Assembly (NCBI GenBank): GCA_963805625.1
Contig: CAWDVE010000010.1
Location: forward strand, 320,001 to 384,000
Direction: 5' to 3'
Source: an uncultured Candidatus Rokubacteria bacterium
Lineage (GTDB): Bacteria > Methylomirabilota > Methylomirabilia > Rokubacteriales > DASRDR01
Length of the DNA: 64,000 nucleotides
The position numbers and the translations under genes were made by a program. Positions within the stretch are counted from its first letter, which is position 1, and the number at the start of each line of letters is the position of its first letter. Of the stretch, positions 10,942 through 37,186 are shown piece after piece. Under the pieces are notes generated by a model, which saw nothing but the letters and a program-made list of their open reading frames with translations, ran no database searches and had not been told where the DNA came from.

Positions 10942-10976
10942 GCCCCCGTAGCTCAGTCGGATAGAGGGTTTCCTAA
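10942..10976 (+). pseudogene. displaced 5' half of tRNA-Arg(CCT) with 4-nt deletion (att junction)
   Basis: GCCCCCGTAGCTCAGTCGGATAGAG-GGTTTCCTAA equals 14252-14290 minus 4 nt; identity stops at the anticodon loop; TGCTAGAAT extended -10 upstream. Confidence 0.9.
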
Positions 10977-11245
10977 TACGCGGCCAGCCGCTAGGCTTTC
11001 CACGATTTCCACGACAGCATCGGGAAAACGTGGACTTGCGCCGTGTCAGAGACGGACTAGCGTGTCTCTTGCTCTTGCGCCCCCGAGTCTCACCAAAACG
11101 AGCGCGTGATGGCACATAGAATGGCATCGCGGGCTAGGGTGGCGGCTGATCCCCGCCACCGAACGCGCGGCATCCCGACCGCGCTGCCCGCGAGTGACTT
11201 CAGGACGCTCGAATGCCTTTGATTAAGCGGGCCCCCAAGTGGGCT

Positions 11246-11806
11246 TTAGGCGTTTTGCCGTCTGCGGCGCAGCAAGGTCCCCAATCCCGCTATCCCCAAT
11301 CCGACCAAGACGAGGGAAGCCGGTTCCGGAACCTGCTCCACATCGGATTGTACCGACACGCTGTATCCGAAAGCGCGCAGTTCGGCGGGCAGGTATTGGG
11401 TCACGTCCTGCAATTCTCCGGTTTCCGGAATGCGCGGTACGTCTGGGCCCAGGCCGAGCCCTGGCCCGCCTTCCGAATCGGAGATAAAGAGAAGCGAATA
11501 CACTGGGGATCCCGACGCGTGCTGCAGGTCAAGCACGTCGCTATCTTCACCCGTGCCGGGCTCGGTGAGTGCGACCAGAAAGCTTTCGGGCGGAATGGCT
11601 GTGCTGGCTGGCCCAGCCAAGCCCGAGGCGAGAATCAATTCCAACCCCCCTCCCGTTTCCGCTGTAGTTTCATCGAAAATAACGACGTCATTGAGGAGTA
11701 TGACCATCCGATCCGATGTCCCTGCGGGCAATGGAGTAGCTGATGCGAGTGTTGTCAGGCTGCCCCAAACCGAACATACGAGCACGGCGCTCATCACGGA
11801 CTTCAT
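11246..11806 (-). CDS. PEP-CTERM protein
   Basis: GGGAGG RBS, signal peptide, C-terminal VPEPASLVLVGLGIAGLGTLLRRRR. Confidence 0.9.
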   Translation of the reverse strand: MKSVMSAVLVCSVWGSLTTLASATPLPAGTSDRMVILLNDVVIFDETTAETGGGLELILASGLAGPASTAIPPESFLVALTEPGTGEDSDVLDLQHASGSPVYSLLFISDSEGGPGLGLGPDVPRIPETGELQDVTQYLPAELRAFGYSVSVQSDVEQVPEPASLVLVGLGIAGLGTLLRRRRQNA

Positions 11807-11899
11807 GATGTCGTCCTCCCTCTGTCGCTTCCCACGGAGTTTCGCCTCAACCCGGCGAGGACGCGGGCTCCAACGTCGAGTCCCTCCCCCGGCACGATG

Positions 11900-12045
11900 A
11901 TCGATGCCAACAATGTGACCCGCTGCGCGACGAAGCGCCAAGCGAGCCCAACGATCCCGGCGGCGAGGAGCAGGAGCGTAGCGGGTTCCGGGACGGCCTG
12001 GGGCTCTCCGTAGAAGAAGTCATCCATCACGACGAGATCGACCGG
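11900..12045 (-). pseudogene. C-terminal remnant of a PEP-CTERM protein
   Basis: DLVVMDDFFYGEPQAVPEPATLLLLAAGIVGLAWR with no signal peptide or body. Confidence 0.75.
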
Positions 12046-12262
12046 GAGACAGTCATGAGAGGGACAACCTCCCAACTCGCATCCTTCACGCTCGCTCTTG
12101 GCCTCCTGATCCTGCCTTGCTCGGCTGAGGCGCTACAAGTGTTCACCGACACCCGGATTCCTAGCGAGCGACATCCAGGACACCATCAGTCGCTCGGGCT
12201 TACGTCCGGCGCATCCTACGCCCTCGAGACCCACGCCCCGAAACCCGTAGTCATCGGGGAGG

Positions 12263-12279
12263 AGCACTTGTCGTGCCAA
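12263..12279 (-). promoter_or_regulatory. sigma54 (-24/-12) promoter
   Basis: TTGGCACG-ACAA-GTGCT facing the PEP-CTERM genes. Confidence 0.6.
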
Positions 12280-12536
12280 TGAACCTAGGTGTCGAAAGAT
12301 CATTAGATTCCGCAGCTTCGGTCGAGGAGCCGTCGAGAGCTTTGAAGACGGACTGCACACCCCAGTGTGCACCCCGGCCGCTCTCCGGTCGGGTAGGACC
12401 CCGAGATCCCTTTCGATTCGGAGAGATGCCAGTGCTGCACAGTAGGCAGTGCAGGGTGCACTGTGGACTGTGCAGGTTGCGGGGCCGAAGACTCTCGTCA
12501 CGGTGTTCCATGAATGTGCGGTAGGAAAAAAAGTAG

Positions 12537-13844
12537 GGCTCTTCCGGCTTTCGTGTGGGTGACGAAGTCTCCGGGCTATGCTCTGCCCTGCCGAGGGGAG
12601 GGGCGGAGCGATGCGCGACACGGAGCTGTACCGAGCGATCTTGGGGCTGACGCCGCCCTGGACGGTGGGGGGCGTCGAGCTGAACATGCCGGAGGGGCAG
12701 GTGGTCGTCCGGGTGGAGGCCGGGCCGGGCCCGTTTGTCTGCCCGGAGTGCGGGAGTGCGGCGGAGCGCTACGACAGTCGGCCACGGCGGTGGCGGCACC
12801 TCGACACCTGTCAGTTGACGACGTGGATCGAAGCGGACGTGCCCCGGATCGACTGCGCGACCCATGGGGTGAAGCAGATCCGGGTGCCATGGGCGGAGCC
12901 GGGGTCGCAGTTCACGGTGTTGTTCGAACGGCTGGCGATTGATCTGCTGTGGGAGTGCTCGGTGACGGGGGCGAAGCGGGTGCTGCGCATCAGCTGGGAC
13001 GAAGCGTGGGGCATCAAGACCCGCGCCGTGCGGCGGGGGCTGGCTCGGCGCCAGGCCGAGGTCGTGCCCCATCTGGGCGTGGACGAGAAGGCCATCGCCA
13101 AGCGGCACCGGTATCTTACGGTGGTCGCCGATCTCGAGCGCAACCGGGTGCTCTATCTGGCCGACGACCGCAAGCAGGAGAGTCTGGACGGCTTCTGGGC
13201 CACCCTCACGGCCGCGCAAGTGGCGGGGATCGAGGCCATGGCGATGGACATGTGGGAGCCCTACGTCCAGTCCACGCGGGCGCACCTGCCGGACGCGGAC
13301 CGGAAGATCGTCTTCGACAAGTTTCATGTGGTCAAGCATCTCCACGACGCCGTCGACCAGGTGCGGCGGGGCGAGCATCGGGCGTTGAAGCGGACGGGTG
13401 ACGACCGTCTCACCGGGTCCAAGTACCTCTGGCTGATGCGGCCCAAGGACATGACGCCGGACCAGCAGACGGCGTTCCGGCTGTTGCAGCGGCAGGATCT
13501 CAAGGTGGCGCGGGCATGGCTGCTCAAGGAGCGCTTCGCCGCCTTCTGGGACTACACCTACCCCGGGGCCGCCGAGACGTTCACCGCCCGCTGGTACTGG
13601 CGCGCCACGCACAGTCGGCTCAAGCCCATGGCGGGCGTGGCCAAGCTAATCAAACGTCATCTCCCGAACCTGCTCACGTACCTCACGCACAAGATCACCA
13701 ATGCAGGCCTGGAAGCCGTCAACTCCGTCATCCAAGGCGTCAAGAAGACCGCCCGTGGGTTCCGCAACCCGGAGCACTTCAAGATCGCCATCTACTTCCG
13801 GTGCGGTGGGCTCGACCTCTACCCACACGAAAGCCGGTAGAGCC
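12537..13844 (+). mobile_element. ISL3-family insertion sequence, complete
   Basis: 24-bp IRs GGCTCT(T/A)CCGGCTTTCGTGTGGGT with 1 mismatch; 8-bp TSD AAAAGTAG at 12529-12536 and 13845-13852. Confidence 0.95.
12611..13840 (+). CDS. ISL3 transposase
   Basis: CPEC zinc finger, RRWRHLD, GVDEK, MDMW, FDKFHV, TNAGLEAVN. Confidence 0.95.
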   Translation: MRDTELYRAILGLTPPWTVGGVELNMPEGQVVVRVEAGPGPFVCPECGSAAERYDSRPRRWRHLDTCQLTTWIEADVPRIDCATHGVKQIRVPWAEPGSQFTVLFERLAIDLLWECSVTGAKRVLRISWDEAWGIKTRAVRRGLARRQAEVVPHLGVDEKAIAKRHRYLTVVADLERNRVLYLADDRKQESLDGFWATLTAAQVAGIEAMAMDMWEPYVQSTRAHLPDADRKIVFDKFHVVKHLHDAVDQVRRGEHRALKRTGDDRLTGSKYLWLMRPKDMTPDQQTAFRLLQRQDLKVARAWLLKERFAAFWDYTYPGAAETFTARWYWRATHSRLKPMAGVAKLIKRHLPNLLTYLTHKITNAGLEAVNSVIQGVKKTARGFRNPEHFKIAIYFRCGGLDLYPHESR

Positions 13845-14150: not shown

Positions 14151-14214
14151 CTGATGTCATCGCGCCAGAAGGCGGTGTCGATGGCACACAGAATGGCACG
14201 AAGCGGTCCGTCGG

Positions 14215-14243
14215 TTGACAGGCGTCGCGTAACCTATGACAAT
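14215..14243 (+). promoter_or_regulatory. sigma70 promoter of the intact tRNA-Arg
   Basis: TTGACA-N17-GACAAT ending 9 nt before the tRNA. Confidence 0.75.
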
Positions 14244-14251
14244 CATTGCGC

Positions 14252-14328
14252 GCCCCCGTAGCTCAGTCGGATAGAGCAAGGGTTTCCTAAACCCTGGGCC
14301 GGGTGTTCGATTCACCCCGGGGGCACCA
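14252..14328 (+). tRNA. tRNA-Arg(CCT)
   Basis: GCCCCCG/CGGGGGC acceptor stem, AGGGT-TTCCTAA-ACCCT anticodon arm, TTCGATT T-loop, CCA end. Confidence 0.96.
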
Positions 14329-15498
14329 ATATTCTCGCATAGTTGTCGAACGCTCGCCGAAACGGTCGCCACCGCAGTGTCACTCACGGTGTCACTGCAA
14401 GCAGTGGGGGGTGCCTCCTGGTCGCGAGTAGTTGGGGCGGGACTGCCTACCAGACGCTCGACGCCTTCCCGGAGCCTCCCCGGGCTGAGGTGGGCGTAGC
14501 GCATGCCCATCGCGAGCGTTTTCCAGCCTCCCAGCTCCTTGATGGTCAGGAGGTCCACGCCTGCCATCGCCAGTCGTGAGGCGAAGGTGTGGCGCAGGCA
14601 ATGCCAGGAGAAACCGTCGAGCATCTCCGCGTCCCCCTGCCGGCCCGCCTCGGCAAGCGCGTGACACGCCTTGGCGACCGCGCGGGGGAACCACCGATCC
14701 GCCTTCTGGGGCGGGTCCATATTGTCCGCGCCCCGGAATACGTGCTCGTTCCCCTCGGGAAGGCGCCGGGTGGCCATGTCCATGAGAATCTCGCGGACGC
14801 GACGGTTCATCGGCACGTGCCGAGTGCCACCATGCTTGCTTCGAGGAATCGTGAGAGTGCCCGTCATGAAGTCACAGTCGCGCCAGCGGAGCCCCATCTG
14901 CTCAGACCAGCGGAGCCCTGTGTGAATGGAAACCTCGACCATCTCCCGACGCCGGGCATCCGGCACAGCGTCAAGGAGAGATCGCTCGGCCTCCGCGGAA
15001 GGAAGGTACTTGAGGCGGCCATTATTCTCCCGAGGGAAGCGCGTGCCGACAACGGGGTTACTCGTCGCTTTGCCGTTCCGAATCGCCACGTTGAAGCAGC
15101 ATCGGAGTGCGGCTAGGTAGCGAACTACGGTAGCCGGCTCGTATCTTAGCTTGGACTCATGGCGGCCCGGCGTGCGCTGTGGGTCACGACGTTCCATCAG
15201 CGCCAGCTTGCCCTGCTCCACGTCCTGGCGAGTAATGGAAGCCACGGGACGGTCGCCCCATCGATCCTTCCAGTAGAGGATGCGGACGCAGTCATTGTGC
15301 GGCGGCCGGTTGTGCGCCTTCTGGTATCCCACGTACTCCTGAACGACTTCTGAGAAAAGGACAATGCGTTGCCGCTTCGTGGCGGTTGGGCAGAATTGCT
15401 CCGTTCGAGCAAGGGTCCGGCGCTTCTCCACCTCCTGCTGCGCCACGGACTTGGCGCCGACCAGCTCTCGGTGCTTGTGCCCGAGGGAGCAGTACCAA

Positions 15499-16220
15499 TG
15501 CGCATACCGGCGAAGCTGAACACCCAGATCGGCCCATCGTGAACGCGCCGGTCGGGGATCGTGATCGGAGCGGAGCGACGCTGGCCGGCCGATCAGCTGT
15601 CGAGCTTGCCCTCCTTTCTCCGTGAGGGACCTTTTAGCACGAGTCGGTGCGCGTTGTGCAGGAGCCGATCGCAGATGGCGTCAGCCAGCGTGGGCTCCCC
15701 GATGTGATCGTGCCACTGGGCCGGGGGGAGCTGGCTCGTGACGATCGTGGAGCGGCTGCCATAGCGATCTTCCAGAATCTCGAGCAGGTCGCGGCGTTCC
15801 TGGTCCTGTGGCGGGGCCAGGCCCCAGTCGTCGACGAGAAGGACGTCCATGCGCGCGAGCTTGCCGAGGAGCCGGCCGTAGGTCCCGTCGGCGCGCGCCA
15901 CGCGGAGATCATCGAACAGGCGGGAGGCCCGGCGGTAGTAGGCGCGATAGCCGCGGCGGCAGGCCTGGTGGGCGAGGGCGCAGGCGATGAAACTCTTGCC
16001 GGTGCCGGTGGCGCCGGTGACGAGGACCTGCTGGTGCTCGGCGATCCAGCGGCAGGTGGCGAGCTGGCGGATCACGGCCTTGTCGAGCTCCCGGCGGGCG
16101 GGATAGTCGATGGCCTCGATAGAGGCCTGCGGCAGCTTGAGCTTGGCTTCCTGGAGGGCGCGGGTCAGGCGCTTGTTCTCCCGCGCCAGCCACTCGGCGT
16201 CGACCAGCAGCCCGAGACGC
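15499..16220 (-). mobile_element. istB: IS21-family remnant (one end plus 5'-truncated istB)
   Basis: TGCGCATACCGGCGAAGCTGAACA terminus; IstB GATGTGKS, LLVDDWG, ADAICDRLLHNA (15593-~16220); istA absent. Confidence 0.85.
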
Positions 16221-16469
16221 TGGCTCCGTTGGAGTACGGCAGTGTCGCGTGAGTGGGACGCCGCCGCGTGTCCGAGGCACCAATGCAGCTAGGTCAGCGG
16301 CCCCCGCCCGCCGGAATCACCTACGCTGAGGCGATCACCCCGGCCGATTGAAACGTCCTACAATTAATAAGTTAGCACGGGTTCCCCCGATTGTCAACCG
16401 GCGTTCTACCAGGCTCCGGGTGCCCCTACGCAGCCCCCGCGCGTCCGGGGTGTCGTGAATCAACAGGCG

Positions 16470-16660
16470 ACGTGACATTGGACGGCGGACGGAGCCTGTA
16501 GGCGCCCCGCCGAGCAGTGAACCGGGCTCGAACGCCCGTGGAGCCCGTCTGGCGCCCGGTGTCGGCCTTGGGGTAGACGGGGCGGCCGGCGGCGTCGAGC
16601 CAGACCGGGGGGACCATGCCGCCGACCCAAGAAGGCGACGCCCCGCGCGGGGCAGGGCGT
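16470..16660 (+). mobile_element. probable IS110-family non-coding end remnant (no transposase)
   Basis: GACGGAGCC..CGCCC..AGCAGTG..GGGCTCGAACGCCCG..GCGGCCGG pattern recalled from IS110 leaders; followed by GGGGGA RBS and ATG 16616 with a truncated ORF. Confidence 0.4.
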
Positions 16661-16685: not shown

Positions 16686-17324
16686 TCAGTCGCGACGCCG
16701 CCAGCCGAGGCCCAGCCCCAGCAGTCCGAGGCCGAGCAGCGTGAGCGTACCGGGTTCGGGGACACCCTGAGCGTCGGAGAAGTCGACCTGCTTCACTTCC
16801 TTGAAGCCCGACTCGAGGAAGATCTGCACTTCCTTGATGGTCTCATCAAGGGACACGATGCCGATCCGCGTAAAATCCGCGTTCGCGTTCTGCCCAAAGA
16901 AGGTGAAGATCTGCGGAGGATTCCCCTGGTTGTCCGTCACCGTGACCGTGATCGGGTTCGATTGGGTGACATCCTCATTGGGTTGGCCGCGGAACGAAAA
17001 GTCCCCGAACTGGTTCGGATTCTCCGGTGTGAACGTCAGGGTCGTGAGCACGTCGTCGTTGTTGTCTGGCTTGATGTTGGCGTACCCGTTGCCCGTCTGG
17101 ACGCCCACGTCAGCTGTGACGTCGACCTCGAGGTTGTTGAGCGCGGCCGTGCACGCTTGATTCGCGCTGACGACGCCACAGAAGCTCGTCGAGCCGTTCG
17201 TCGGCTTGTCGATGAAGAATTTGTCCCCGCCCGGATCCGGATCGACGATGAAGGTGGCCTGGGCCGGGCTGGCCAGCAGGGCGGCCAGGACGACGACTGA
17301 CGCCGCGACTAGGGTACGGATCAT
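16686..17324 (-). CDS. PEP-CTERM protein
   Basis: Signal peptide ending SPAQA; C-terminal VPEPGTLTLLGLGLLGLGLGWRRRD. Confidence 0.92.
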   Translation of the reverse strand: MIRTLVAASVVVLAALLASPAQATFIVDPDPGGDKFFIDKPTNGSTSFCGVVSANQACTAALNNLEVDVTADVGVQTGNGYANIKPDNNDDVLTTLTFTPENPNQFGDFSFRGQPNEDVTQSNPITVTVTDNQGNPPQIFTFFGQNANADFTRIGIVSLDETIKEVQIFLESGFKEVKQVDFSDAQGVPEPGTLTLLGLGLLGLGLGWRRRD

Positions 17325-17388: not shown

Positions 17389-17405
17389 AGCAGATTTCGC
17401 GCCAA
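17389..17405 (-). promoter_or_regulatory. sigma54 promoter
   Basis: TTGGCGCG-AAAT-CTGCT 65 nt upstream of the PEP-CTERM start. Confidence 0.7.
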
Positions 17406-17531
17406 TCTAGTTACGCTCCCAAAATCGGGGAGTTAGCCCCGCGTGATCTCCAGAGTGTAAAGTAAGTTGGCAGTCGGCAATTTTGCCCTTCTGTAAGTAC
17501 CGAAGAACATGAGCTTCTCGACAAGCCACGG

Positions 17532-17548
17532 TGTCGACATTCTTTACA
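17532..17548. promoter_or_regulatory. TGT-N11-ACA enhancer-binding-protein site
   Basis: TGTCGACATTCTTTACA about 127 bp upstream of the sigma54 site; similar site at 23116. Confidence 0.6.
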
Positions 17549-17779
17549 TGTTCGCACTTGGGGTCCCCCGACCGCTGGACGTGCGAGCCCCTCTCTTGAT
17601 CGACGGCCGCTGCAAGGAGCTTAACGACCCCGATGGTAGTCTCAGCGCGACACTGGAGACGCAAGGCACGATCCTACGCGGCAAGCTCTGGAAGGCGCGA
17701 TGACGAGGTTGGAACCCAACAAGCCGCGCGTTGAAGTCGGCTCCCACACAACCCACGGATGGGACCCAACGTCGGCCGG

Positions 17780-17828
17780 GGGACCCTCTCACTCGAATTT
17801 GAACGGGTGTGTACGCGCACTCGTGCCC
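17780..17828 (+). repeat. 49-bp direct repeat, copy 1
   Basis: GGGACCCTCTCACTCGAATTTGAACGGGTGTGTACGCGCACTCGTGCCC; 2 mismatches to 18974-19022. Confidence 0.9.
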
Positions 17829-18073
17829 AGCCGGGTCCCCCTCCCGGCCCACGCTGGTCTCCGATTGGGAAAGGAGGCCCCATATGAGGCATCGCCCGGC
17901 TGACAGTCCCGGCCACCCTCGACCTGGCCCTGCTTGCCGCGCCGCTCGCCATCGGGCTCAACAGGCGGCGGATAGACTATGCAAGTTCCTTCATCTTGAC
18001 AGCGCTGGCGACCAGACGTAGTGTCGGCCCGCTTCCTCGAACGTCCGGCCCTCGCCGGTAAGGAGAGAGGGAT

Positions 18074-18727
18074 ATGCTCAACGACCTGTTCCCGGGACAA
18101 CGCTTCACTACCCGAGGCGGGCGTGGCAACCGGCACGGGCGTCTGTGCGTAATTGCAGCGGTTCTAGCGCTCGTCTGGGGGGTCAGCGCGCCCGCCGCGA
18201 CAGCCGCGATCATCGAGCACGTCTTCACGGGTGACATCCTCGTAAACGACGGATTGCCAGGCGTGTCGGTCGGGGACCCTTTCACTGCCACCTTGACCTA
18301 CGATGACTCGCAGTCCCCCTTTTTCGTCTCGCCAGTGGAGGCGGACTACGCGGAATTCACCTTCGAAGTCACCGTTGGTGCTTTCATTTTCTCTCAGCCC
18401 CAACCGCCCATCGTGGCTCTGGTGGTCTTCAACTTTCCCGGAGTGGACAGGTTCGAAACAGGCCCGGGCTCGGGGCCAGTCTTTCGGTTGGTTGATGATT
18501 CTGGAAGCGCCCTCAGTTCCACTGCCCTCCCAACTACTTTGGACATCGCAGACTACTCCTCTGGGCCCAATTTCCTCATAGTCCCCCCCTTTCTTACAGG
18601 CGAGATTACGTCAATCTCGTCGAGGGTCGTGGGCCAACCTGTAGCGGAACCAGCTACCCTCGTTCTTCTCGCCCCCGGTCTCGCCGGACTCGGCGCGCTG
18701 CGCTGGAGGAGACAGCGCCGACAGTAG
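18074..18727 (+). CDS. PEP-CTERM protein (VAEP variant)
   Basis: Signal peptide; C-terminal VAEPATLVLLAPGLAGLGALRWRRQRR; TTGACA-N17-TAGTGT at 17996-18024. Confidence 0.88.
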   Translation: MLNDLFPGQRFTTRGGRGNRHGRLCVIAAVLALVWGVSAPAATAAIIEHVFTGDILVNDGLPGVSVGDPFTATLTYDDSQSPFFVSPVEADYAEFTFEVTVGAFIFSQPQPPIVALVVFNFPGVDRFETGPGSGPVFRLVDDSGSALSSTALPTTLDIADYSSGPNFLIVPPFLTGEITSISSRVVGQPVAEPATLVLLAPGLAGLGALRWRRQRRQ

Positions 18728-18818
18728 AGTCGCCGGAGCCTTGCGGAGCTTTCCACGGGCGTCGAGTATCCCTCGGCGCCCGTAGTGTTATCACGACGCC
18801 CCGCCGCTAGGGGTGTAG

Positions 18819-18901
18819 GTCATCACATGAAAATCGCCAAGGCCCTCGGCCTGACGATTCCGCCGTCGGTGCTGGCTCGGGCGGATCAGGTCATAGAGTG
18901 A
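18819..18901 (+). pseudogene. 3' remnant of ABC substrate-binding protein
   Basis: [24 protein letters not shown]-stop. Confidence 0.75.
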
Positions 18902-18973
18902 GCGGCAGGTTCTCAAAACCCGGGAGTTGCGCCCTTTTCCACCAGATTCGGGACACCACCACGGCCGAGCCGC

Positions 18974-19022
18974 GGGACCCTCACACGCGAATTTGAACGG
19001 GTGTGTACGCGCACTCGTGCCC
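18974..19022 (+). repeat. 49-bp direct repeat, copy 2
   Basis: Matches 17780-17828. Confidence 0.9.
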
Positions 19023-19260
19023 TGCTGTGCCCCCGCCATCGCGAGCCGCGGGTGCCCTACCCATGGGTCCCCCTTCGTGGGGGAGGGGGGGGTGCCGGAG
19101 CGGGCTAGTTGCGGGCTAGTTGCGAGTCGCGCCGGGTCGCATCCGGTTCCGTTCGGGGGCAGTGGCGCGCGCCGTTGTGTGCGGTGCAAGTGCCGGCACA
19201 AGTGTCCCCCGTGTACACTGACGACGACCAGCGCCCCTGAGTGCGCCACCCTTGGTGGGT

Positions 19261-19305
19261 CTACGAATCCGAAGGTCGCAGGTTCGAATCCTGCTGGGCG
19301 TACCA
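19261..19305 (+). pseudogene. 3' half of tRNA-Arg(ACG) (att remnant)
   Basis: CTACGAA anticodon loop through GGTTCGAATCC to ACCA; no 5' half; followed by a hairpin at 19308-19337 and a T-run. Confidence 0.85.
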
Positions 19306-27865: not shown

Positions 27866-28096
27866 TCAGCCCCGTGGGGGACGAAGTGTGCCAGGCCGGA
27901 ATAGATCCCCGGGTTCACACCTGAGCCGTCGGCAGAGCTTTGAGAGAGTCTGGAGCGTGACGTTCTGCCCGGCGTTCTCGATCCGCGTGAGCGTGGGGCG
28001 GCTGATCCCGAGCCGACGGGCCAGCTCGTCCTGGCTCCACCCCGCCTCCTCGCGGAGGCGCCGGAGGGACTCCCCCAGCAGCCGCCCAAGATCCAC
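27866..28096 (-). CDS. XRE-family HTH regulator
   Basis: LRRLREEAGWSQDELARRLGISRPTLTRIENA. Confidence 0.88.
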   Translation of the reverse strand: MDLGRLLGESLRRLREEAGWSQDELARRLGISRPTLTRIENAGQNVTLQTLSKLCRRLRCEPGDLFRPGTLRPPRG

Positions 28097-28172
28097 GCGA
28101 GAGACTCTTGCCTACAGTGCGGTGCACATGTGAACATCCTGCCGACCATCCGCGAGGTGGGAGGGATGACGG

Positions 28173-28604: not shown

Positions 28605-28608
28605 AGCA

Positions 28609-28824
28609 ATGGACCCGTCTCGGCTCTGGTACGCGGGGGCCGGCTTTGTTCTGGGGTTCCTGCTAGCGTGGCTGGTGGGTGGCACCGGCCTCTATCGCAC
28701 GCACACCGCACGCATCGGTCCTGCAGAGGTCCTCTATCGCGTCAATCGGATCACAGGCGCGGTCTCTCTGTGCGTGGGAGCCCACGGCTGCCGCTCTGTC
28801 CCCGAGCTTCCCGCGGACCGCTAG
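28609..28824 (+). CDS. small hypothetical membrane protein
   Basis: TM helix, then YRVNRITGAVSLC. Confidence 0.5.
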   Translation: MDPSRLWYAGAGFVLGFLLAWLVGGTGLYRTHTARIGPAEVLYRVNRITGAVSLCVGAHGCRSVPELPADR

Positions 28825-29040
28825 GGCGACCGAAGCCTTGGGATGGCGATACCCGCCAGATGATGCCGCCAGCGCCGTGGGTCAGCATCAAATGGGAGGG
28901 ATGACGATGGCATTGAGTCGGTGGGCACGAGACGCCAAGGAAATGTGGGAGGCGCGATGGCGAAACCCGGCGGACCACGTCGTGGGTTGCGGCCGGTCCC
29001 GCCCGGTCGTCGCCCGCGACCGATCGGTACCCCAGTGCCA

Positions 29041-29066
29041 GAAAGTTGCCCGCGCGGGCAAGTTTC
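29041..29066. repeat. palindrome sharing the 16-bp core TTGCCCGCGCGGGCAA with 27823-27850
   Basis: GAAAGTTGCCCGCGCGGGCAAGTTTC directly upstream of the serine recombinase. Confidence 0.85.
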
Positions 29067-29079
29067 GGCCTCGGCGGCA

Positions 29080-29725
29080 TTGACTGCCGTGGCCCCGGCG
29101 GGTCACCGGAACGGGCACACCCAGCCCGTCCGCGTCACCCGGCCGCTTCGGGTCGGAGTCTACGCGCGCGTCTCGACCGCCGACCAGATCCCCGAGAACC
29201 AGCTCGCCGTGCTGCGGGCGTTCGCGGAGGCCCGTGGCTGGACCGCCACCGAGCACACCGACCACGGTGTCAGCGGGGCCCGGACGAGCCGCCCGGCCCT
29301 CGATGCGCTGCTCGCCGCCGCTCGGGCTCGGCGTCTTAGACGTGGTCCTGACTACGAAGCTCGACCGGCTGGCCCGCTCCACGCGTCACCTGGTTGACTT
29401 GGCGGCCGAGCTCGAGGCCCTCGGGGTTGACCTGGTCGTCACCGATCAGGCGATCGACACGACCACGCCGGCAGGCCGCCTGATGTTCAACGTGCTATCC
29501 GCCATTGCCGAGTTCGAACGGGACTTGATCCGCGAGCGGGTGGTCGCTGGGATCCGCCGAGCCCGGGCGCAGGGTCGGCACGTCGGTCGCCCGCGGAAGT
29601 ACCGAGTCGATGCGACGGCGGTGCAGGCCCTCCTGGCCGCCGGGACGTCGCTCCGCGGGGTTGCCCGGCGCCTCGGGGTCCACCCGAGCGCCGTTCGTCG
29701 GGCCCTCGCGCGGGCGGTCGGCTAG
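29080..29725 (+). pseudogene. small serine recombinase (resolvase/invertase) with frameshift near 29335
   Basis: YARVST, SG..RP, KLDRLARS, AEFER, GRP and HTH split across two frames. Confidence 0.85.
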
Positions 29726-29840
29726 CTTGGGGTTTCTGCCAGTCCGTCGAGGAGCGGGCGGTTCGGCGGAATTCTGAACCGCTCCCGCGTCACCGCGTGT
29801 CGAACCGATTGGGCATCACATGCAGGAGGGCGCTCGCCGT

Positions 29841-30311
29841 TCAGCGGGCGAGGCTCTCAAAGAAGCGACGGACGGCACTGGCGCCCTCGTTGACGGCGCG
29901 GGCGGTCTCCGCCACGACGCCGGGTGGCCCCGAGCCCGAACCGCGGGGCGTGAGGCGGACCCGGACCTCGGCCGTCCGGCCGGCACCGACCTGAACTCGG
30001 CGCGTGTCGGGCGCGTAGCGCGGGTGCGTGACGCGCATGCGGTACGTGCCTTCGCGGAGGCGCGTCCGAACCTGGCCGCTCTCCCCCGGCGCCAGGGTTT
30101 CGAGGAGCGCATCGTCGCCACCGAGGATCTCTACGCTGGGCCCAGTCACCGGCCGATCGGTGCGGGCGTCATGAACGATGGCCACCAGTTCTCCAGTCCC
30201 CGGGGCCCGGCTGAAGTACTGCACGCCCGTATAGACGCCACCGACAACCGAGAAGAGGCCCGCCACAAGGCCGATCACGGACTGCGTACCGGACAATGTC
30301 GGCTTGCGCAT
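29841..30311 (-). CDS. membrane-anchored carboxypeptidase-regulatory/PEGA-like domain protein
   Basis: TM helix; DARTDRPVTG..GTYRMRVTHPRY..EVRVRL. Confidence 0.6.
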   Translation of the reverse strand: MRKPTLSGTQSVIGLVAGLFSVVGGVYTGVQYFSRAPGTGELVAIVHDARTDRPVTGPSVEILGGDDALLETLAPGESGQVRTRLREGTYRMRVTHPRYAPDTRRVQVGAGRTAEVRVRLTPRGSGSGPPGVVAETARAVNEGASAVRRFFESLAR

Positions 30312-31004
30312 GCGTTCCTCGTCGAGAGGCCGGGCTGCGCCGGGCAGGCCGGTCCTGTCTGCGGTCAAGCAATGAGGGTGCCACCCGGAGCGGCCCTCGA
30401 GAAGCAGACTCCCGACGCGACGTCGAACCGCTGGTACTGTCAAGTGAAACGGGCAGCGGCCACCCGATACGCGGTGGAAACACGGCCTGGGAGCTCGGCG
30501 GTCAGCTGACCCCAGATTGTCAGTCAGCGCCAGAAGTCCGTCGCATCGTCGCCACCGCGGGTGATCCTGCCCGTGCCGAGGCGAACCGCCCGAGGGCAGG
30601 ACTGTCCGCACGTAGGTGTGCTCGGAGTTGGGCCGCCCGAAGCACCCTTGGGATCACCGGCGCGTTTCCCGGCAGAGGCCCGTCCAGCGCGGCTTCAGGA
30701 GCCTGGGAGGCCCGGCGAGCGCCTGCCCGACTTCCTCCTATGGTCCCGGCGCTCCGAAGAAGCTTCCAGACGCCGAAGTGCTCCTCAACCGAGGTGTCGC
30801 AAATCCCTGGCGCGGGGGGGTCGCCAACCCCGCGCCACATCGACTCCCGAGCGAGTGTTCCGGGGCCGGTGCAAAGAAGTTCCTTTGCGACAGTCATAGC
30901 ATCGCATGCTAGAGTCGCCGCGACGGTAGCCCTCGCCCGGACTCGGCGCACCCTCCGTGTCGCGTCTTCTAAGGATCGGCAGGGGGAAGGGGGCCTTGCT
31001 GAGC

Positions 31005-33681
31005 GTGACCCTAGAAGACCTCCAGCCCGACGCCACCGTCCGCGGCATCCTGCCGGACGCCGTGGTAACGGTCGTCACCGTCCAGTGGCACGGGTCGGAC
31101 GCCCTGACGCTCGTCTACCGGGGACCCCACGGCCGCGTCGCCGACGAGATCCTCTATCGCCACGACGAGCCGCGCCTGGAGATCGCCAAGACCGGCCGAC
31201 CGTGGAGCTTCGACGGTGACGGCGCACTCTTCCGCCTCGTGTCGGAGGCGCACCGGATCCGCCTCGCGCACCTCTTCGACCCCGTGCTGGCGGTGCATAC
31301 CTCGCTCGTGGACCCACTGCCGCACCAGATCACGGCCGTCTATGAGGCCATGCTGCCGCGCCAGCCGCTCCGCTTCCTGCTCGCTGACGACCCGGGCGCG
31401 GGCAAGACGATCATGGCGGGCCTGTTCATCAAGGAGCTGATCGCCCGCGGCGATCTCCGGCGCTGCCTCGTGGTCTGCCCCGGCAGCCTTGCCGAGCAGT
31501 GGCAGAACGAGCTCCATCGCCGCTTCCACCTGCCGTTCGAGATCCTGACCAACGACAAGCTCGAGGCCGCGCGCACCGGGAACTGGTTCCTGGAGAACGA
31601 CCTCGCCATCGCCCGGCTCGACAAGCTCTCCCGCAACGAAGACGTGCCGCAGAAGCTGGCCGCCCCGGACTGCCGCTACGACCTCGTGGTCTGCGACGAG
31701 GCGCACAAGCTGTCGGCCACCTTCTTCGGCGGTCAGGTCAAGTACACCAAACGCTACCGGCTCGGGCAGCTCCTCTCCGGGCTCACGCGGCACTTCCTGC
31801 TGATGACGGCGACACCCCACAACGGCAAGGAAGAAGACTTCCAGCTCTTCCTCGCGTTGCTCGACGGGGACCGCGTCGCCGCCGCGAGCGACTCGAGAGG
31901 CGCCTCCGCGAACTGGAGCTCTTGCAGCGCGGCACCGCGGCGTCGCCGGTGGCGCCGGCCCCGACACTGGGCGGCCCCGAGCTGGACGCCGACGACGTCG
32001 AGGACCTCGAGGACGCGCCGGAGCGCGAGGTCGAGGCCGCCGAAGAGGAGATCCTCGATCAGGCCACGGCGGCGGCGACGCTCGCGGAGCTCAAGATCGA
32101 GATCGCCACGCTTCAGCACCTCGAAGGGCTGGCCGCCGAGGTTCGCCGAAGCGGCCAGGACACCAAGTGGCGCGAGCTCGCGCACCTGCTCGGCGAGATC
32201 TTCACCCCGGGCGGCCTGGGCGGGCAGATCGGTGAGGCCACGGTGCCCTACGGCGCGGGACCGATCCCCAGGCCCGCTCCCTCGCCGTGGCAGAAGCTCG
32301 TCGTCTTCACCGAGCACAAAGACACCCTGGCCTACCTCGAGCGCCAGATCGGATCGCTCCTCGGCCGCCCGGACGCGCTCGTCGTGATCCACGGCAGCAT
32401 TGGCCGTGAGGATCGGCGCAAGGCGCAGGAGACCTTCCTGCATGACCCGGAGGTCCGGGTGCTCGTCGCCACCGACGCCGCCGGCGAGGGGATCAACCTC
32501 CAGCGGGCGCACCTCATGGTGAACTACGACCTGCCGTGGAACCCGAACCGCCTCGAGCAGCGATTCGGCCGCATCCACCGTATCGGCCAGACCGAGGTCT
32601 GCCACCTGTGGAACCTTGTCGCCGAGGAAACCCGGGAGGGTGACGTCTACCGGCGGCTCCTGGAGAAGCTCGAGGAGGCGCGCCAGGCGCTCGGCGGGCA
32701 GGTGTTCGACGTCCTCGGCAAGCTCCAGTTCGAGGGCAAGCCACTGCGCGAGCTCCTGATCGAGGCCATCCGCTACGGCGACCAGCCCGAGGTGCGGGCG
32801 CGCCTCACGCGTGCCATCGAGCATGGCGTGGACCGCCCACACCTGGTGACCCTGATCGAGGAGCGCGCGCTGGCCCACGGACGCGATGGACTCGAGCCGC
32901 GTGGCCCGCGTGCGCGAGGAGATGGAGCGCGCCGAGGCGCGGCGCCTCCAGCCGCACTACATCGAGTCGTTCTTCCTCGAGGCCTTCAAGCGCCTGGGGG
33001 AAGCGCCCGCCAGCGCGAGCCGCGCCGCTACGAGGTCAGCCATGTCCCGGCGCCGGTGCGCAGCCGTGACCGCCAGATCGGGGCGGGCGACCCGGTGCTC
33101 GCGGCTACGAGCGCATCGCCTTCGAGAAGGAGCTAATCGCCCCACCGGGTCAGCCGCTCGCCGCCTTCGTCTGCCCCGGCCACCCGCTCCTGGATGCCGT
33201 GCTCGACCTCACGCTCGAGCGGCACCGCGACCTCCTGAAGCGCGGGACGGTACTCGTGGACACGCGCGACCCTGGCACGAGCCCGCGCATGCTGTTCACG
33301 ATCGAGCACGCCATCCAGGACGCGAGCGTGCTCCCCTCCGGCGACCGACGCGCCATCTCGCGGCGGCTCCTCTACGTCGAGATGGACGCCGCGGGGAAGG
33401 CCCGCCACCCCCACTATGCCCCCTACCTCGACTACCGGCCGCTCGAGGATGGCGAGCCTTCCGTAGCCGACGTCCTAGCCCGTCCCGAGTGCGCCTGGAT
33501 CACCCGCGACCTGGAGCGGATGGCCCTCGGCCACGCCATCCAGACGGTGGTCCCCGAGCACATGGCCGAGGTGAAGGGTCGGCGGCTCCAGTGGATCGGG
33601 AAGACCCGGGTGGCCGTCAAGGACCGCTTGACCAAGGAGATCGCATCCTGGTCCTCGCGAGACGCGGCCAGGACGACCTAG
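31005..33681 (+). pseudogene. SNF2-family helicase of defence-associated type, with deletion and frameshifts
   Basis: PLPHQ, LLADDPGAGKT, DEAH, MTATPH, ATDAAGEGINLQ, WNPNRLEQRFGRIHRIGQ over several frames; C-terminus missing. Confidence 0.85.
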
Positions 33682-33846: not shown

Positions 33847-33892
33847 TTTCCTAAACCCTGGGCCGGGTGTTCGATTCACCCCGGGGGCACCA
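33847..33892 (+). repeat. tRNA-Arg(CCT) 3'-half duplicate (att junction)
   Basis: Identical to 14283-14328. Confidence 0.95.
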
Positions 33893-34240: not shown

Positions 34241-34451
34241 TGAAAGGCGTTGTTGCAGATGGTCGTACCACCGCTCGGCGGCGGTCCGCACGGCGCCGCT
34301 CCACGGACGCCGCACGGTCGGGACGACGCCGATCGCCGATCCGGCGATCCCAGATGAGCTCCACGTCGCGGCGGAACCGGGAGGCTACCGTCCCCTGGAC
34401 GAGCTGGGAGGTCCGGCCGGCGGCGCGGCTCACGACAACGAGGATCGCCAT
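34095..34451 (-). CDS. small DRR/ERR-repeat hypothetical protein (3' end uncertain)
   Basis: VELIWDRRIGDRR..VERRRADRR motif. Confidence 0.45.
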   Translation of the reverse strand: MAILVVVSRAAGRTSQLVQGTVASRFRRDVELIWDRRIGDRRRPDRAASVERRRADRRRAVVRPSATTPFRYPRTRSTRRLCSPSATSWMHERLKPPRMRHWLDFVRGMSANSTSERR

Positions 34452-34661
34452 CGTATCGACCCCGACCCTAACAGAGAGCCGACCCCTGGCGGCAGACGGG
34501 CTCCTACGCCGCTGAAGTCGCTGTGACTGTGGGGAGCCCAGACCGTTTTCGCGCCGCCTCGCAGCTCAGCGTGCAGCGATTTTGACTCCCGCCGGATCCA
34601 GCCGGACAATCGGAATGGTCAGCGCAGTGGATCAGCCGAATCCACCGAGCCGGAGGTTCCT

Positions 34662-35168
34662 ATGGCCGACATCGAGGGAGAGCGACCCCGCGCGACCGTG
34701 GGCAGCGACGCGGGCGACGTGACGGCGCAAGAGGTGACGATCCGGCAGGGCGGGGCCCGCTCCATCGCCGCCCGGGAGGTGACCATTCGGCAGGGCGGGG
34801 CCGGCCGAGTCGACGCGCAGAAGGTCGAGGTCACGCAGGGCGGCGTGGTCCTGGCCTCGACGAAGGAGCTGGAGGTCACCGCCGGCGGGATCGTGGCCGC
34901 GATCGCCGATACCGCCACCCTGGAGCAGAGCTGGGCCCAGGTGGTGGTCGGCCGGGAGTCGGTGACCCTGGACCAGGCGGCCGGTGGCCTCGTCGCATCG
35001 AAGACCGTCCACGCCCGCGACAGCGCCATCGGCCTCGTCCTCGCGCGCGACTTTCAGGGTGAGGGGGTCCGTGTGCTCATGGGCCCGCGGGCCGCGCTCG
35101 CCTTTGGCGCTGGCCTGGGCCTCGCCCTCGCGCTTGTCGCCGTCGCGCGCCGCCCGCGCCGGGACTGA
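34662..35168 (+). CDS. hypothetical repeat (beta-solenoid-like) protein with C-terminal TM anchor
   Basis: GGAGG RBS; about 15-aa repeats AxEVTIRQGGA; TM helix plus RRPRR tail. Confidence 0.7.
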   Translation: MADIEGERPRATVGSDAGDVTAQEVTIRQGGARSIAAREVTIRQGGAGRVDAQKVEVTQGGVVLASTKELEVTAGGIVAAIADTATLEQSWAQVVVGRESVTLDQAAGGLVASKTVHARDSAIGLVLARDFQGEGVRVLMGPRAALAFGAGLGLALALVAVARRPRRD

Positions 35169-35681
35169 CCCCCGCGGTTTCGATGGGTGTCCCACGCCCA
35201 GCCGAGGCTCGCCGTCAAGGAGACGCAGGCCAACGGTGGGTGCAGCGGCTGGGCCTCGCGGTCGGCGCGCTATGCGCACTGGCGCTGCTGGGTGCGGGAC
35301 CGTGAAGCACCGTCTGGCCGAAAGAGCTCGCCCGGCTCGGCGCGAAGCGCCCGGCAGAGCTGCGCCAGCGTCCGGAGGGTCAACGCAGGGGTTTCCGGTG
35401 CCCGGCGGAGTACCGGGCGACCTTAGAACTCGTGCTCCCATCTGTCTAGCGAACTGGGGAGCAGATCACGACGTCAGGCGGTCGCCTGGGCGACAGGCGG
35501 CCGCCGGCGGGCCTGCGTTCCGCGAGGCTGCCAGCCCTAAACGCCCGTCGTGAGACCAGGGGCAGTCAGGGCGCGTTTCGGCCGATCGCGCTCGGCACCG
35601 GATTGTCGGCGCGATCCGCCAGGCCCTTCCCGAGGTCTGCCCCCACCGACGATCCCGCGCGCGCGACGTATCATCACATGC

Positions 35682-36314
35682 ATGGGCGCGGCCATCCGTC
35701 TCGAGCGCGAGATGCCCGTCGCCGGCCAGGCCGGCTGCGCTACCGTGATCGGGATCGTCCTCGCCGTCGCTGGAATCGCGATCGTCCTCGCCATGCGGAG
35801 CCAGGGGTCCCGCGGCGGGGAAAACGAATGGGTCGTGTACGCCGTCGGCGGCGGCTTCGGGCTGATCGGGCTGCTGACGGCGGTGCTCGGGATCAAGATG
35901 TTCCTGATGATGCGACTACCCGAGACGATCGTGGAGGTCGACCGGATGCCCGTTCACGTCGACGAGCCGTTCCAGCTGACGGTTCGCCAGCCGGGCCCGA
36001 TCCGACTCTCGTCGCTCCGCGTGAACCTGGTGTGCGAGCAAACGACGACGCGCCAGGTGCGGCGGGCGGGAGGGACGAGAACGGACCGGGATCAACGGCT
36101 CATCCACCAGGCCAACGTCCTGGACCTGAGAGACGCCGCCGCCGGCCGGGGCAAGGAGGTCGTCGGGCACGCCACGGTCACCGTGCCGGCCGACGTGCAG
36201 CTCGCTGACATCGAGGGGCACACGGTGGTCGTCTGGCGCCTCGAGGTTTGGGGACGCGTGCGCGGATGGGCCAACTTCGGGCACCCATTTGTCATTCAGG
36301 TCCTGGACAGCTGA
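35682..36314 (+). CDS. hypothetical membrane protein
   Basis: Two TM helices followed by a beta-rich domain. Confidence 0.6.
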   Translation: MGAAIRLEREMPVAGQAGCATVIGIVLAVAGIAIVLAMRSQGSRGGENEWVVYAVGGGFGLIGLLTAVLGIKMFLMMRLPETIVEVDRMPVHVDEPFQLTVRQPGPIRLSSLRVNLVCEQTTTRQVRRAGGTRTDRDQRLIHQANVLDLRDAAAGRGKEVVGHATVTVPADVQLADIEGHTVVVWRLEVWGRVRGWANFGHPFVIQVLDS

Positions 36315-36489
36315 CGCACTTCGCCTCGATCGTGCGGAGCGCAATGCTCAAGGGCAGCGGCCTGGCAGCCCGCGCTGCCCGGCTCGCAGCGCGACGAGCT
36401 CGGCCTGGGTCCGCCGGGTCGGACCGTCGCGGAGATCAGCTCAACTGCTTGCGGAACCGCCAGACGCTGGGAGCGAGGCGAGCACCACC

Positions 36490-37186
36490 GTGAAGATCGA
36501 CAGGGCGAGCAGAGCGGGGCGAGTGGCTTCGCGCTCGCTCTCACCCCGAGCGCGTATGGCACGGCCCTCTACACCGCCTCCATTGAGGCAGACATCGGCT
36601 TCTCCGGTCAGTTCGGCGACGTCGAACTGCTTAATTTTCAGTTCGCCCTTGTCACCGCCCCCAGCGACTTTACTCCCAATCCCGGGGCGTTTGCGTCTTC
36701 GGCGGCTAGCGTCGATCTTTCCGCTCTCACCGTGTCCGCAGGGGCTTTCGGCAACACCGATGGGCCGCCGTCGGAGGCGACATCGTTCGCCTCGAGCACG
36801 ATTGCGTTCGACGTGCACAATCCCACCGAGGAGGAGATCTCGGTGGGCTCACGCTGGCACAATCGCATGCCTTCCTGGGCGCTGTGGATGATCCGGCGTC
36901 GGAGGTTGCCGGCATCTTGATGACCCTCTTGTTCACGGTCGGCGGCCAGGCGCCCTTCCAGACCACCATCAATCAGGAGACGCCGCCGAACTTTGACACC
37001 TTCTTCCCTTCCTCGTTCTCCTCCCCCACCTTTCAGATCGGCCCGGACGGAACGGTGCCCGTCAGTTTGCAAGTGACCGCCTTCGGCCTTGTCCAGGCCG
37101 TTCCTGAACCCGCTTCGCTCGTGCTGATTAGCGCCGGCGTCGCTGGGCTCGTAGCGCTCCGCTGGAGACCACAGCTCCGCCCGTAG
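36490..37186 (+). pseudogene. PEP-CTERM protein, frameshifted
   Basis: Signal-like ALALTPSAYG, body split over frames, C-terminal VPEPASLVLISAGVAGLVALRWR. Confidence 0.8.

Follow-up and report, generated by a model that had tools for sequence, protein, structure and literature searches.

Surface proteins carrying a PEP-CTERM sorting tail are abundant in the bacteria of soil, sediment, and sludge and vary widely between close relatives, and known functions for them are mostly lacking. How does a genome gain and renew dozens of such genes whose bodies are unrelated? No route has been described in the literature that we found. The question is raised by a 64,000-nucleotide stretch of DNA (the window; C10:320001-384000 of source genome G000, where C10 is contig CAWDVE010000010.1) from an uncultured "Candidatus Rokubacteria" bacterium, in which seven PEP-CTERM genes or remnants lie in an island built on a single tRNA-Arg(CCT) gene. 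The locus is probably an assemblage of decayed, small, satellite-like elements that stacked on the tRNA from both sides and brought PEP-CTERM genes as cargo, and that belong to several element lineages and not to one family. The evidence comes from the window, from the rest of G000 (7.27 Mb in 28 contigs, 99.9% complete, 6.3% contamination), and from related genomes.

Units integrated at tRNA-Arg(CCT)

The array lies within a 2.2-Mb contig and has syntenic core genes on both flanks. Its integration target is a whole tRNA-Arg(CCT) gene (window positions 14252-14328, + strand; ARAGORN and Rfam), with the crossover at the anticodon loop (14284-14290). Displaced halves of this tRNA, which serve as attachment (att) sites, bound three units. 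A 5' half with a 4-nt deletion (10942-10976, +) forms the left end of unit A; a 3' half (20772-20816, +; 100% match) is both the right end of unit B and the left end of unit C; and a second 3' half (33847-33892, +; 100% match) closes unit C. The anticodon-loop heptamer is common to the tRNA and all displaced halves (four copies), and one 5' fragment upstream plus two 3' fragments downstream of a whole tRNA is the layout of Islander-type tRNA gene (tDNA) islands. Relatives have the whole tRNA at the site of the 5' half, adjoining a core OCD gene, which marks 10942-10976 as the original tRNA position. The G+C content is 69 to 70% in core DNA, 63% in unit A, 64% in unit B, and 68% in unit C.

Unit A (3.3 kb) contains PEP1, a remnant of PEP2, and an ISL3 insertion sequence (IS); a search for an integrase remnant in it found none. 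At the right end of the unit, the restored tRNA gained a promoter-like sequence (14210-14251, +) with 85% likeness to the terminus of a left-stacking element of the 5' type, itself integrase bearing, in the related genome G008. Unit B (6.4 kb) contains the tyrosine integrase Int1, PEP3, PEP4, the 3' half of a foreign tRNA-Arg(ACG), and PEP5, and unit C (13 kb) contains an AbiJ gene, the tyrosine integrase Int2, PEP6, and debris. Int1 (14157-15498, -; PF00589, E value 2e-25) has had its N terminus removed by an IS21 element, and its frame continues across the tRNA, whereas Int2 (21777-22958, -; PF00589) is intact. A first-pass annotation made from the sequence alone had described tandem tRNA-Arg integrative elements; the att boundaries at the tRNA bear this out, whereas unit A has no integrase and entered from the opposite side.

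PEP-CTERM genes of the window

Matches to PF07589 are at positions 11261, 11935, 16692, 18647, 19530, 23932, and 37097 and account for 7 of the 22 in G000. Units A, B, and C hold two, three, and one of these genes, the seventh (PEP7) lies, as a correction to the first-pass annotation, in unbounded island DNA outside the last att copy, and the flanking core holds none, in agreement with that annotation, which had also called the seven mutually dissimilar; the five whole bodies and two pieces of PEP7 indeed have no mutual similarity (best E value, 0.19). The five whole open reading frames (ORFs), each with an ATG start, a hydrophobic N-terminal stretch, and a tail, are PEP1 (11246-11806, -; 186 amino acids; PF07589, 28 bits; TIGR02595, 29 bits), PEP3 (16686-17324, -; 212 amino acids; PF07589 and NCBIfam), with a beta-sandwich body predicted by structural modeling, PEP4 (18074-18727, +; 217 amino acids; PF07589), with the variant AEP for PEP, PEP5 (19491-20150, -; 219 amino acids; PF07589 and NCBIfam), and PEP6 (23260-24021, +; 253 amino acids; PF07589), whose model has a jelly-roll body like those of adhesins and carbohydrate-binding modules (CBMs). 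PEP2 is a C-terminal remnant (11935-12060, -; PF07589, 31.5 bits), and PEP7 is frameshifted (36490-37186, +; PF07589).

All seven tails exceed the PF07589 cut-off in the genome scan and six do so in hmmscan, where PEP4 scores 18 bits, under the Pfam cut-off of 20.7; TIGR02595 matches five of the six window proteins tested. The N-terminal stretches, helical in both structure models, are predicted signal peptides. Homologues of PEP1 exist at 70 to 76% identity, and none occurs in the 250 other genomes of the phylum that were searched. The floc PepA model (NF033554) gave 18 to 38 bits with six of six window proteins against a cut-off of 80, and none of the six scanned reaches the cut-off of any named NCBIfam subfamily; the window genes are ordinary PEP-CTERM members.

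Association with tRNA islands across the genome

One gene found by a purpose-built profile brings the PEP-CTERM genes of G000 to 23. Eleven of these lie inside att-bounded units, which make up 5.7% of the DNA (P = 1e-8), so the genes are not equally dense across the genome, the outcome that the first-pass annotation had named as refuting it. Measured against a reference set of Rfam tRNAs, transfer-messenger RNA (tmRNA), and tRNA-Sec, the zones of 10 kb around tRNAs cover 8.3% of the DNA and take in 12 of the 23 genes, and those of 5 kb around tyrosine integrases cover 2.9% and take in 11. With the window excluded and neighbors merged, 5 of 12 loci are still within 10 kb of an Rfam tRNA (P = 0.002). 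Sigma-54 activators, used as a dispersed control, show no tRNA bias (4/38), and IS of the rve type are next to tRNAs in 3 of 19 cases and within 5 kb of an integrase in 2 of 19, compared with 11 of 23 for PEP-CTERM genes (P = 0.017). Among att-bounded units, five of seven with their own integrase are PEP-CTERM positive, versus 1 of 26 without (P = 5e-4; unit A was scored as integrase-less, the automated match there being Int1 reading across the tRNA). All three units at this tRNA are positive, compared with 3 of 30 elsewhere (P = 0.004).

Long att arrays occur at other tRNAs as well, with at least 12 tRNA-Lys(CTT) 3' halves on contigs C7 and C2 and, at C10:1711242-1792736 and C16:7879-78048, four tRNA-Gly(CCC) 3' halves and four tRNA-Asp(GTC) 5' halves. 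No tyrosine integrase was matched inside the units of these arrays, which may have been moved in trans or by another recombinase.

The locus and the association in related genomes

Matches to the tRNA-Arg(CCT) locus were fetched from 12 related genomes, several ending at contig borders. On the left the core genes are conserved, and each genome differs in the DNA that follows. In G013, the closest relative with the locus (core proteins mostly more than 90% identical), the tRNA directly follows the OCD gene, and units A, B, and C are all absent. The window's genes are at this tRNA in none of the 12 genomes, and no relative was found with the same genes here but without the att duplications. Two genomes have other PEP-CTERM genes at the site. 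G008 has three contigs with the locus, and the PEP-CTERM gene, a different one on each, stands 0.8, 5, or 17 kb from an att site of the 5' type; G089, from another family, has two further PEP-CTERM genes by such a site, one inside the unit and one just outside it.

Genome-wide, a tRNA or att fragment is no more than 10 kb away from 12 of 22 PEP-CTERM loci in G008 (11 of 22 without one borderline locus), versus 1 of 20 control windows centered on sigma-54 activators (P = 6e-4). Outside the Rokubacteria, a tRNA lies within 10 kb at 7 of 26 loci with PEP3 homologues, several of which are kin, and an integrase at one. Counts in relatives are PF07589 positions, some of which the purpose-built profile misses there, and att detection was built on the tRNAs of G000 and the fetched loci, so its sensitivity is lower in distant genomes. 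PEP-CTERM matches are present in 67 of 124 genomes of the order. We consider it fairly probable that PEP-CTERM genes are a recurring cargo in exosortase-bearing Rokubacteria, patchily by lineage.

tRNA-Leu(CAA) is a second site at which different PEP-CTERM genes stand beside a tRNA or att site in three genomes (C21:319176-320278 in G000, L056 in G001, and L023 in G008).

Integrases and whole sister elements

Int1 is 60 to 66% identical to an intact integrase at tRNA-Arg(CCT) in G003, and Int2 shares 70% identity with its counterpart in a satellite-like element that occupies this tRNA in G015; metagenomic relatives of Int2 are mostly tRNA linked. Three whole sister elements, L084 at tRNA-Leu(TAA) and L086, both in G000, and L016 in G015, encode an integrase, a helix-turn-helix (HTH) repressor, and a primase/helicase. 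L084 (13 kb) and L016 (12.8 kb) are both att bounded. Excisionase matches occur in L084 and L086, a virion-protein match in L084, and a terminase large subunit in L016, which also has a match resembling ribosomal protein S21 (L016:11015-11293). Upstream of their integrases, at distances of about 0.8 and 2 kb, L084 and L086 carry a PEP-CTERM gene that is a remnant or frameshifted; C10 has a further piece of the L086 backbone, in which this gene is intact and nearly identical. A PEP-CTERM gene 0.3 to 2.5 kb upstream of an integrase recurs in unit C, in the tRNA-Met, tRNA-Leu(TAA), and C13 elements, and on contig C97 of G008. Among the viral contigs searched, there was no relative of Int2 or PEP3.

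In the public sequencing run X1, one 849-nt contig (depth, 4) joins 20503-20771 to 14284-14863 without a mismatch, the junction expected of an excised circle or a tandem copy of unit B. This junction is a lead only, since the shared 47-nt core could be bridged in assembly; if it is real, excision of unit B would need an integrase acting in trans, such as Int2. Run X1 had no cover just right of the att site at 20772, which is not evidence of absence.

Probable exchange of bodies and tails

The first-pass annotation had pictured a constant sorting tail on a variable body, and in support of it bodies were found on different tails. The PEP3 family comprises 91 proteins with PEP and with VPDSG tails. 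A PEP3 homologue that is 72 to 78% identical lies in an att-bounded unit at tRNA-Thr(CGT) in G008, and "Candidatus Rokubacteria" homologues include one of PEP3 at 72% and one of PEP6 (P0114). PEP6 is 91% identical at the DNA level to a frameshifted gene of G008, and the likeness ends just past the PEP codons; the G008 gene is some 10 kb away from an integrase that belongs to a satellite-like element integrated elsewhere than at a tRNA. Within G008, eight genes with several unrelated bodies, PEP3-type and PEP6-type bodies among them, have a common tail-plus-terminator stretch at 83 to 95% DNA identity (loci L022, L026, L027, L029, L030, L031, L035, and L040). The end of the PEP6 likeness after the PEP codons and the common tails in G008 together point to exchange at the PEP codons.

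Between PEP6 and its G008 copy, one among about 20 body pairs compared, 30 of 221 aligned codons differ and none of the changes is purely synonymous (proportion of nonsynonymous sites changed [pN], 0.075; of synonymous sites [pS], 0.005; P = 2e-4). Compared with a homologue in G063, each copy has a ratio of nonsynonymous to synonymous substitution rates (dN/dS) of 0.09 to 0.13. The changed sites coincide with those that vary in 16 other close homologues (1.35 versus 0.46 bits, P = 5e-11) and are marginally richer in loops (15/25, P = 0.09). Other divergent body pairs have dN/dS values of 0.09 to 0.7 (0.44 to 0.5 for PEP3), and the core OCD gene has a value of 0.10. A diversity-generating retroelement was considered for PEP6 and rejected because the changes are not adenine specific.

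The PEP3 and PEP6 models have a mean predicted local distance difference test (pLDDT) score of 85 and 88, respectively. The PEP6 model matches gingipain cleaved-adhesin domains and CBMs (E values of 1e-6 to 1e-4). The PEP3 model has no Foldseek match at an E value of 0.001 or less, and its structural match is weak, to sandwiches of the CBM type (best Z score, 8.9; root mean square deviation, 4.0; 132 aligned residues). The tested bodies are thus likely, as modeled, to fold as carbohydrate-binding or adhesin-like beta-sandwiches and to change what the cell surface binds, though fold likeness does not establish a ligand.

Host sorting machinery and regulation

The sorting machinery lies elsewhere in G000, where the search proposed by the first-pass annotation located an exosortase and PrsK. 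The exosortase (C13:668152-668913; TIGR02602, 125.8 bits against a cut-off of 105.55) is the only one over the cut-off, and its neighbors, judged by eye, are of the polysaccharide type; PrsK is at C19:698060-700072 (406 bits; cut-off, 300), and an RpoN-like protein is also encoded. Of 15 genomes in the genus, 4 yielded an exosortase and have 21, 27, 10, and 2 PEP-CTERM matches, and the remaining 11 genomes have 0 to 2; the exosortase-positive four include the three richest in PEP-CTERM genes, in a sample that contains nonindependent kin and several incomplete genomes.

Several window genes have candidate regulatory sites, for which the PrsR-type box motif was taken from PMC1569441 and a sigma-54 consensus was used. 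PEP3 has both kinds, a sigma-54 site at 17389-17404 and two PrsR-type boxes at 17456-17472 and 17532-17548 (all -). PEP6 has a box alone (23116-23132, +; motif match), PEP2/PEP1 have a sigma-54-like site alone (12263-12278, -; seven of eight consensus positions), and PEP5 and PEP7 have neither. Of eight strict PrsR-type boxes in G000, four are followed by PEP-CTERM genes, two of them in the window.

An 8.3-kb unit that is att bounded at tRNA-Met (L083; C17:469941-478312) carries a PEP-CTERM gene, preceded by an enhancer-like box and a sigma-54 site, together with a broken PrsK and a broken PrsR, so regulators too can travel on an element. At C16:531111-531389, a PEP-CTERM gene has shrunk to a signal peptide plus tail, an "empty" cassette that keeps its enhancer boxes and sigma-54 site. 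No G008 locus scanned has a strict PrsR-type box, unlike those of G004.

Other features of the island

The ISL3 element of unit A (12537-13844, +; ends taken from public contigs) has an intact transposase (PF01610, E value 1e-72). Beside it, a short ORF that starts like a signal peptide (12055-12282, +; read from the translation, without a Pfam or NCBIfam match) is possibly the 5' remnant of another secreted gene. In unit B, the IS21 end and istB remnant that adjoin Int1 (15499-16221, -) have an identical copy on contig C23. The tRNA-Arg(ACG) 3' half (19261-19305, +; 98% match over 45 nt) is the att site of a different element, and its flanks are unlike those of the native tRNA-Arg(ACG) gene; because this foreign half lies inside it, unit B is probably composite. 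A 66-nt direct repeat, unique to the locus within G000, flanks PEP4 (17775-17840 and 18969-19034, +), and its second copy is followed by a G-rich stretch (18969-19140 including the repeat), which we take to resemble phage packaging sites. The AbiJ-NTD4 protein of unit C (20904-21770, +; PF18863, E value 1e-21) is, from its domain match, likely anti-phage cargo. The remainder of that unit (24352-33680) comprises a topoisomerase-like remnant, an rve-type IS, MsrB, a split resolvase, and a broken SNF2 helicase.

Most neighbors of the PEP-CTERM genes were said in the first-pass annotation to be broken, which is true in part. Int1 (5' end), istB, the topoisomerase-like gene, the resolvase, the SNF2 helicase, a reverse transcriptase, and a second ISL3 are broken, whereas Int2, AbiJ, one ISL3, and one rve-type IS are intact. 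Island DNA continues past the last att copy to about 46.9 kb, and sequence shared with G013 resumes at 46908. This part includes a group II intron reverse-transcriptase remnant (37620-38505), located between two copies of a dispersed repeat of about 70 nt, and two short ORF pieces with a 78-nt repeat (45928-46460) that have relatives in islands at C10:524155 and C10:237470 and would represent a family of small peptides.

The dispersed repeat has 25 copies in G000, is enriched near tRNA islands, lies within 2 kb of 5 of the 23 PEP-CTERM genes, and is also found in relatives. Its copies in the window are at 16531-16566 (a partial copy on the - strand, found with nhmmer), 34456-34528, 37264-37332, 38552-38593, and 48753-48791. 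It is possibly a cis site of the elements; its identification as an attC site was dropped when no support was found. A second recurring cargo is represented by 3' fragments of PF04392-type ABC-transporter binding-protein genes (18815-18899 and 46661-46915), which recur in islands, also beside PEP-CTERM genes in L086, L092, and L179. At the Rfam gathering score the whole window yielded three tRNAs only, with no attC and no group II intron RNA, and an ARAGORN tRNA-Arg(gcg) call at 19082 was rejected for want of Rfam support. Elsewhere in the assembly, tRNA-Val and tRNA-Arg/Ser regions are duplicated across contigs (C13:14293-15300 and C25:500-1636; C15 and C21:395236-395581), which is consistent with strain mixing within the assembly.

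How PEP-CTERM genes may reach and leave the island

In the mechanism that we propose, tyrosine integrases would recombine at the anticodon loop of the tRNA. One class of element would restore the 3' half of the tRNA and stack rightward (units B and C), and another would restore the 5' half with a promoter of its own and stack leftward (unit A). Each unit likely brought one to three stand-alone PEP-CTERM genes, the products of which are predicted to be exported and then anchored by the host exosortase. A PEP-CTERM gene, with a length of about 0.7 kb and often a promoter included, depends on the element for nothing else and could therefore be picked up often. The conserved PEP codons would be the point at which bodies change to other tail-plus-terminator cassettes, and IS insertions and deletions would later strip the element backbones. 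Many PEP-CTERM genes decay, so the repertoire would turn over instead of only growing.

A number of observations weigh against this reading. PEP-CTERM genes occupy just 6 of the 33 att units of G000, and the large tRNA-Lys, tRNA-Gly, and tRNA-Asp arrays hold none. When att fragments are counted, rve-type IS are as island bound (11/19) as PEP-CTERM genes (16/23; P = 0.52). As read from open frames, 8 of 23 PEP-CTERM genes are remnants or frameshifted, compared with 1 split gene among 94 core orthologues. No intact PrsR exceeds the TIGR02915 cut-off in G000, and the copies beside both PrsK genes are split into two frames, which may have left the PrsR-type and sigma-54 promoters without their regulator. 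Scanning of the window ORFs revealed no primase or replicative helicase, in contrast to L084, L086, and L016; with replication and packaging genes missing from the window units, the case for a satellite origin of these units comes from relatives. At the same tRNA, the Int1-like element of G003 and the Int2-like element of G015 lack a PEP-CTERM gene, as do all 41 metagenomic Int2-related loci, many of which are on contigs shorter than 5 kb. The PEP6 homologue of G063 is in a static, PEP-CTERM-rich cluster without an integrase or tRNA. The tRNA link is weak in other genomes, where it holds for 1 of 9 loci in G004, 1 of 2 in G003, 0 of 2 in G009, the single locus of G001, 2 of 12 in G028 (3 if a doubtful tRNA is accepted), and 5 of the 20 loci retrieved from four genomes of family f2. 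The f2 set comprises every locus of G103, G104, and G089 and three loci of G084, and it includes none from G050. In G004, G003, G009, and G028, the listed integrases have no PEP-CTERM match within 5 kb.

The equal island bias of IS, the excess of broken PEP-CTERM genes, and the split PrsR copies fit an account in which tRNA islands passively collect dispensable genes and PEP-CTERM genes entered after integration, by IS activity or illegitimate recombination, to decay mostly as neutral passengers; PEP7, outside any att unit, and the ABC-transporter binding-protein genes and fragments that crowd the same islands fit it too. We regard this account as unlikely. PEP-CTERM genes are nearer to integrases and tRNAs than IS are, they prefer units that keep an integrase, and they lie inside the otherwise whole elements L084 and L086; neutral decay, moreover, predicts a dN/dS near 1, whereas body values are mostly 0.09 to 0.7 with one pair far above 1. 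The broken genes and the scarcity in integrase-less units together suggest arrival with elements and later loss over steady accretion, so that turnover fits better than the accreting repertoire of the first-pass annotation. That annotation had also seen a single family of elements with PEP-CTERM genes as defining cargo. A dedicated family of this sort, with a fixed slot by the integrase and a lasting surface repertoire at this tRNA, would explain why all three units here are positive, why the gene sits just upstream of the integrase in several elements, and why the same tRNA is PEP-CTERM positive in G008 and G089. It is nonetheless improbable: Int1 and Int2 fall in different integrase groups, unit A integrated from the side opposite to the others, related elements at the same tRNA are empty of such genes, and PEP3 and PEP6 homologues lie in elements at other sites. 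An array stitched together by the assembler from several strains or a contaminant, such that no cell has all seven genes, is very improbable, although the contamination estimate and the repeated 47-nt att core speak for it; the contig is long and syntenic on both sides, a contig of run X1 crosses the boundary between core and unit A (10841-11770) without a mismatch, and pieces of units A, B, and C are present at 99 to 100% identity within the same public runs. Even such a mosaic would presuppose that the PEP-CTERM cargo of this site varies among strains.

Decayed satellite-like elements of several lineages with PEP-CTERM cargo thus remain our preferred reading. The locus points to a route by which such genes may be gained and renewed, through tRNA-integrating carriers and a change of tail at the PEP codons, with at least one body under strong diversifying selection, and mobile elements likely reshuffle the outer coat, as far as surface proteins are predicted, in an abundant uncultured phylum. 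A bolder extension, which we hold to be rather doubtful, is that Rokubacteria keep a population-wide library of adhesin-like domains on tRNA-integrating satellites, swapped at the PEP codons onto tail-and-terminator cassettes typical of the host, displayed through one exosortase, and diversifying under antagonistic selection by phages or grazers. If this were true, satellites would retype the surface of each host, as a mobile counterpart of antigenic variation that works through a protein-sorting tag.

Comparison with known systems

tRNA islands and PEP-CTERM genes are each known; what appears to be new is the link between PEP-CTERM cargo and tRNA-island accretion. Our literature search, which covered mostly titles and the openings of abstracts and few subscription papers, found no description of PEP-CTERM genes as tRNA-island cargo and nothing that pairs PEP-CTERM with Rokubacteria.

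A phage-inducible chromosomal island (PICI) typically has an integrase, a repressor, an excisionase, and a primase in a 10- to 15-kb att-bounded element. L084 and L016 fit this description, and the decayed window units do not. The sister elements resemble PICIs and other phage satellites in their integrase, HTH, excisionase, and primase/helicase genes and in single terminase and virion-protein matches, whereas the window units have lost such genes; no capsid gene was identified. In myxobacteria, SitA loci on tandem Mx-alpha elements present a further parallel, in which every element brings its own allele of a modular protein that is delivered to the surface and keeps a constant sorting part. 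SitA genes form toxin-immunity pairs and have an N-terminal sorting part, whereas no toxin domain or immunity gene is evident here. A preprint on Dehalococcoides IME1 elements, in the part drawn on here, reports a conserved gene with a PEP-CTERM domain in a putative virion module.

The window genes agree with the PEP-CTERM/exosortase (EpsH) system in their predicted signal peptide, unrelated bodies, tail of PEP, transmembrane, and basic segments, and single-gene operons, and the host agrees in its exosortase in a polysaccharide-type cluster and in PrsK (PMC1569441); an enhancer box together with a sigma-54 site precedes PEP3 alone among the window genes described above. As described in the main text of that paper, the system has an enhancer box ending in TTTACA together with a sigma-54 site (Haft et al. 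2006, PMC1569441); the box was found in Proteobacteria only, four PEP-CTERM genes are on a Desulfovibrio plasmid, and the main text makes no mention of a tRNA, island, integrase, or transposon. A role of PEP-CTERM proteins in floc formation in Zoogloea is cited in PMC9012009.

The array shares with Islander tDNA islands the restored tRNA plus displaced end fragment, the crossover in the anticodon loop, and the tandem units (PMC4383910). In the portion of that survey used here, islands with a 5' fragment number 159 of 3,919 and tandems of three or more number 4; in contrast, 5'- and 3'-fragment kinds meet at one tRNA in the window, which makes it a rare, two-sided form, and unit A would fail the integrase filter (PMC4383910).

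The closest parallel in layout comes from the tycheposons of Prochlorococcus, small tyrosine-integrase elements stacked at tRNA genes with partial tRNAs between them, which, in the part of the preprint consulted, include PICI-like members, carry replication modules and plug-in cargo, and leave decayed remnants from which islands build up (bioRxiv 10.1101/2020.12.28.424599). Tycheposons differ in belonging to another phylum and in carrying cargo for nutrient uptake or phage interference, not exosortase substrates (bioRxiv 10.1101/2020.12.28.424599), whereas the Rokubacteria locus uses one tRNA from both sides and has cargo that depends on a sorting machine of the host. The architecture would thus work like tycheposon accretion, by likeness and not by membership of the tycheposons or PICIs, with predicted cell surface proteins as its cargo.

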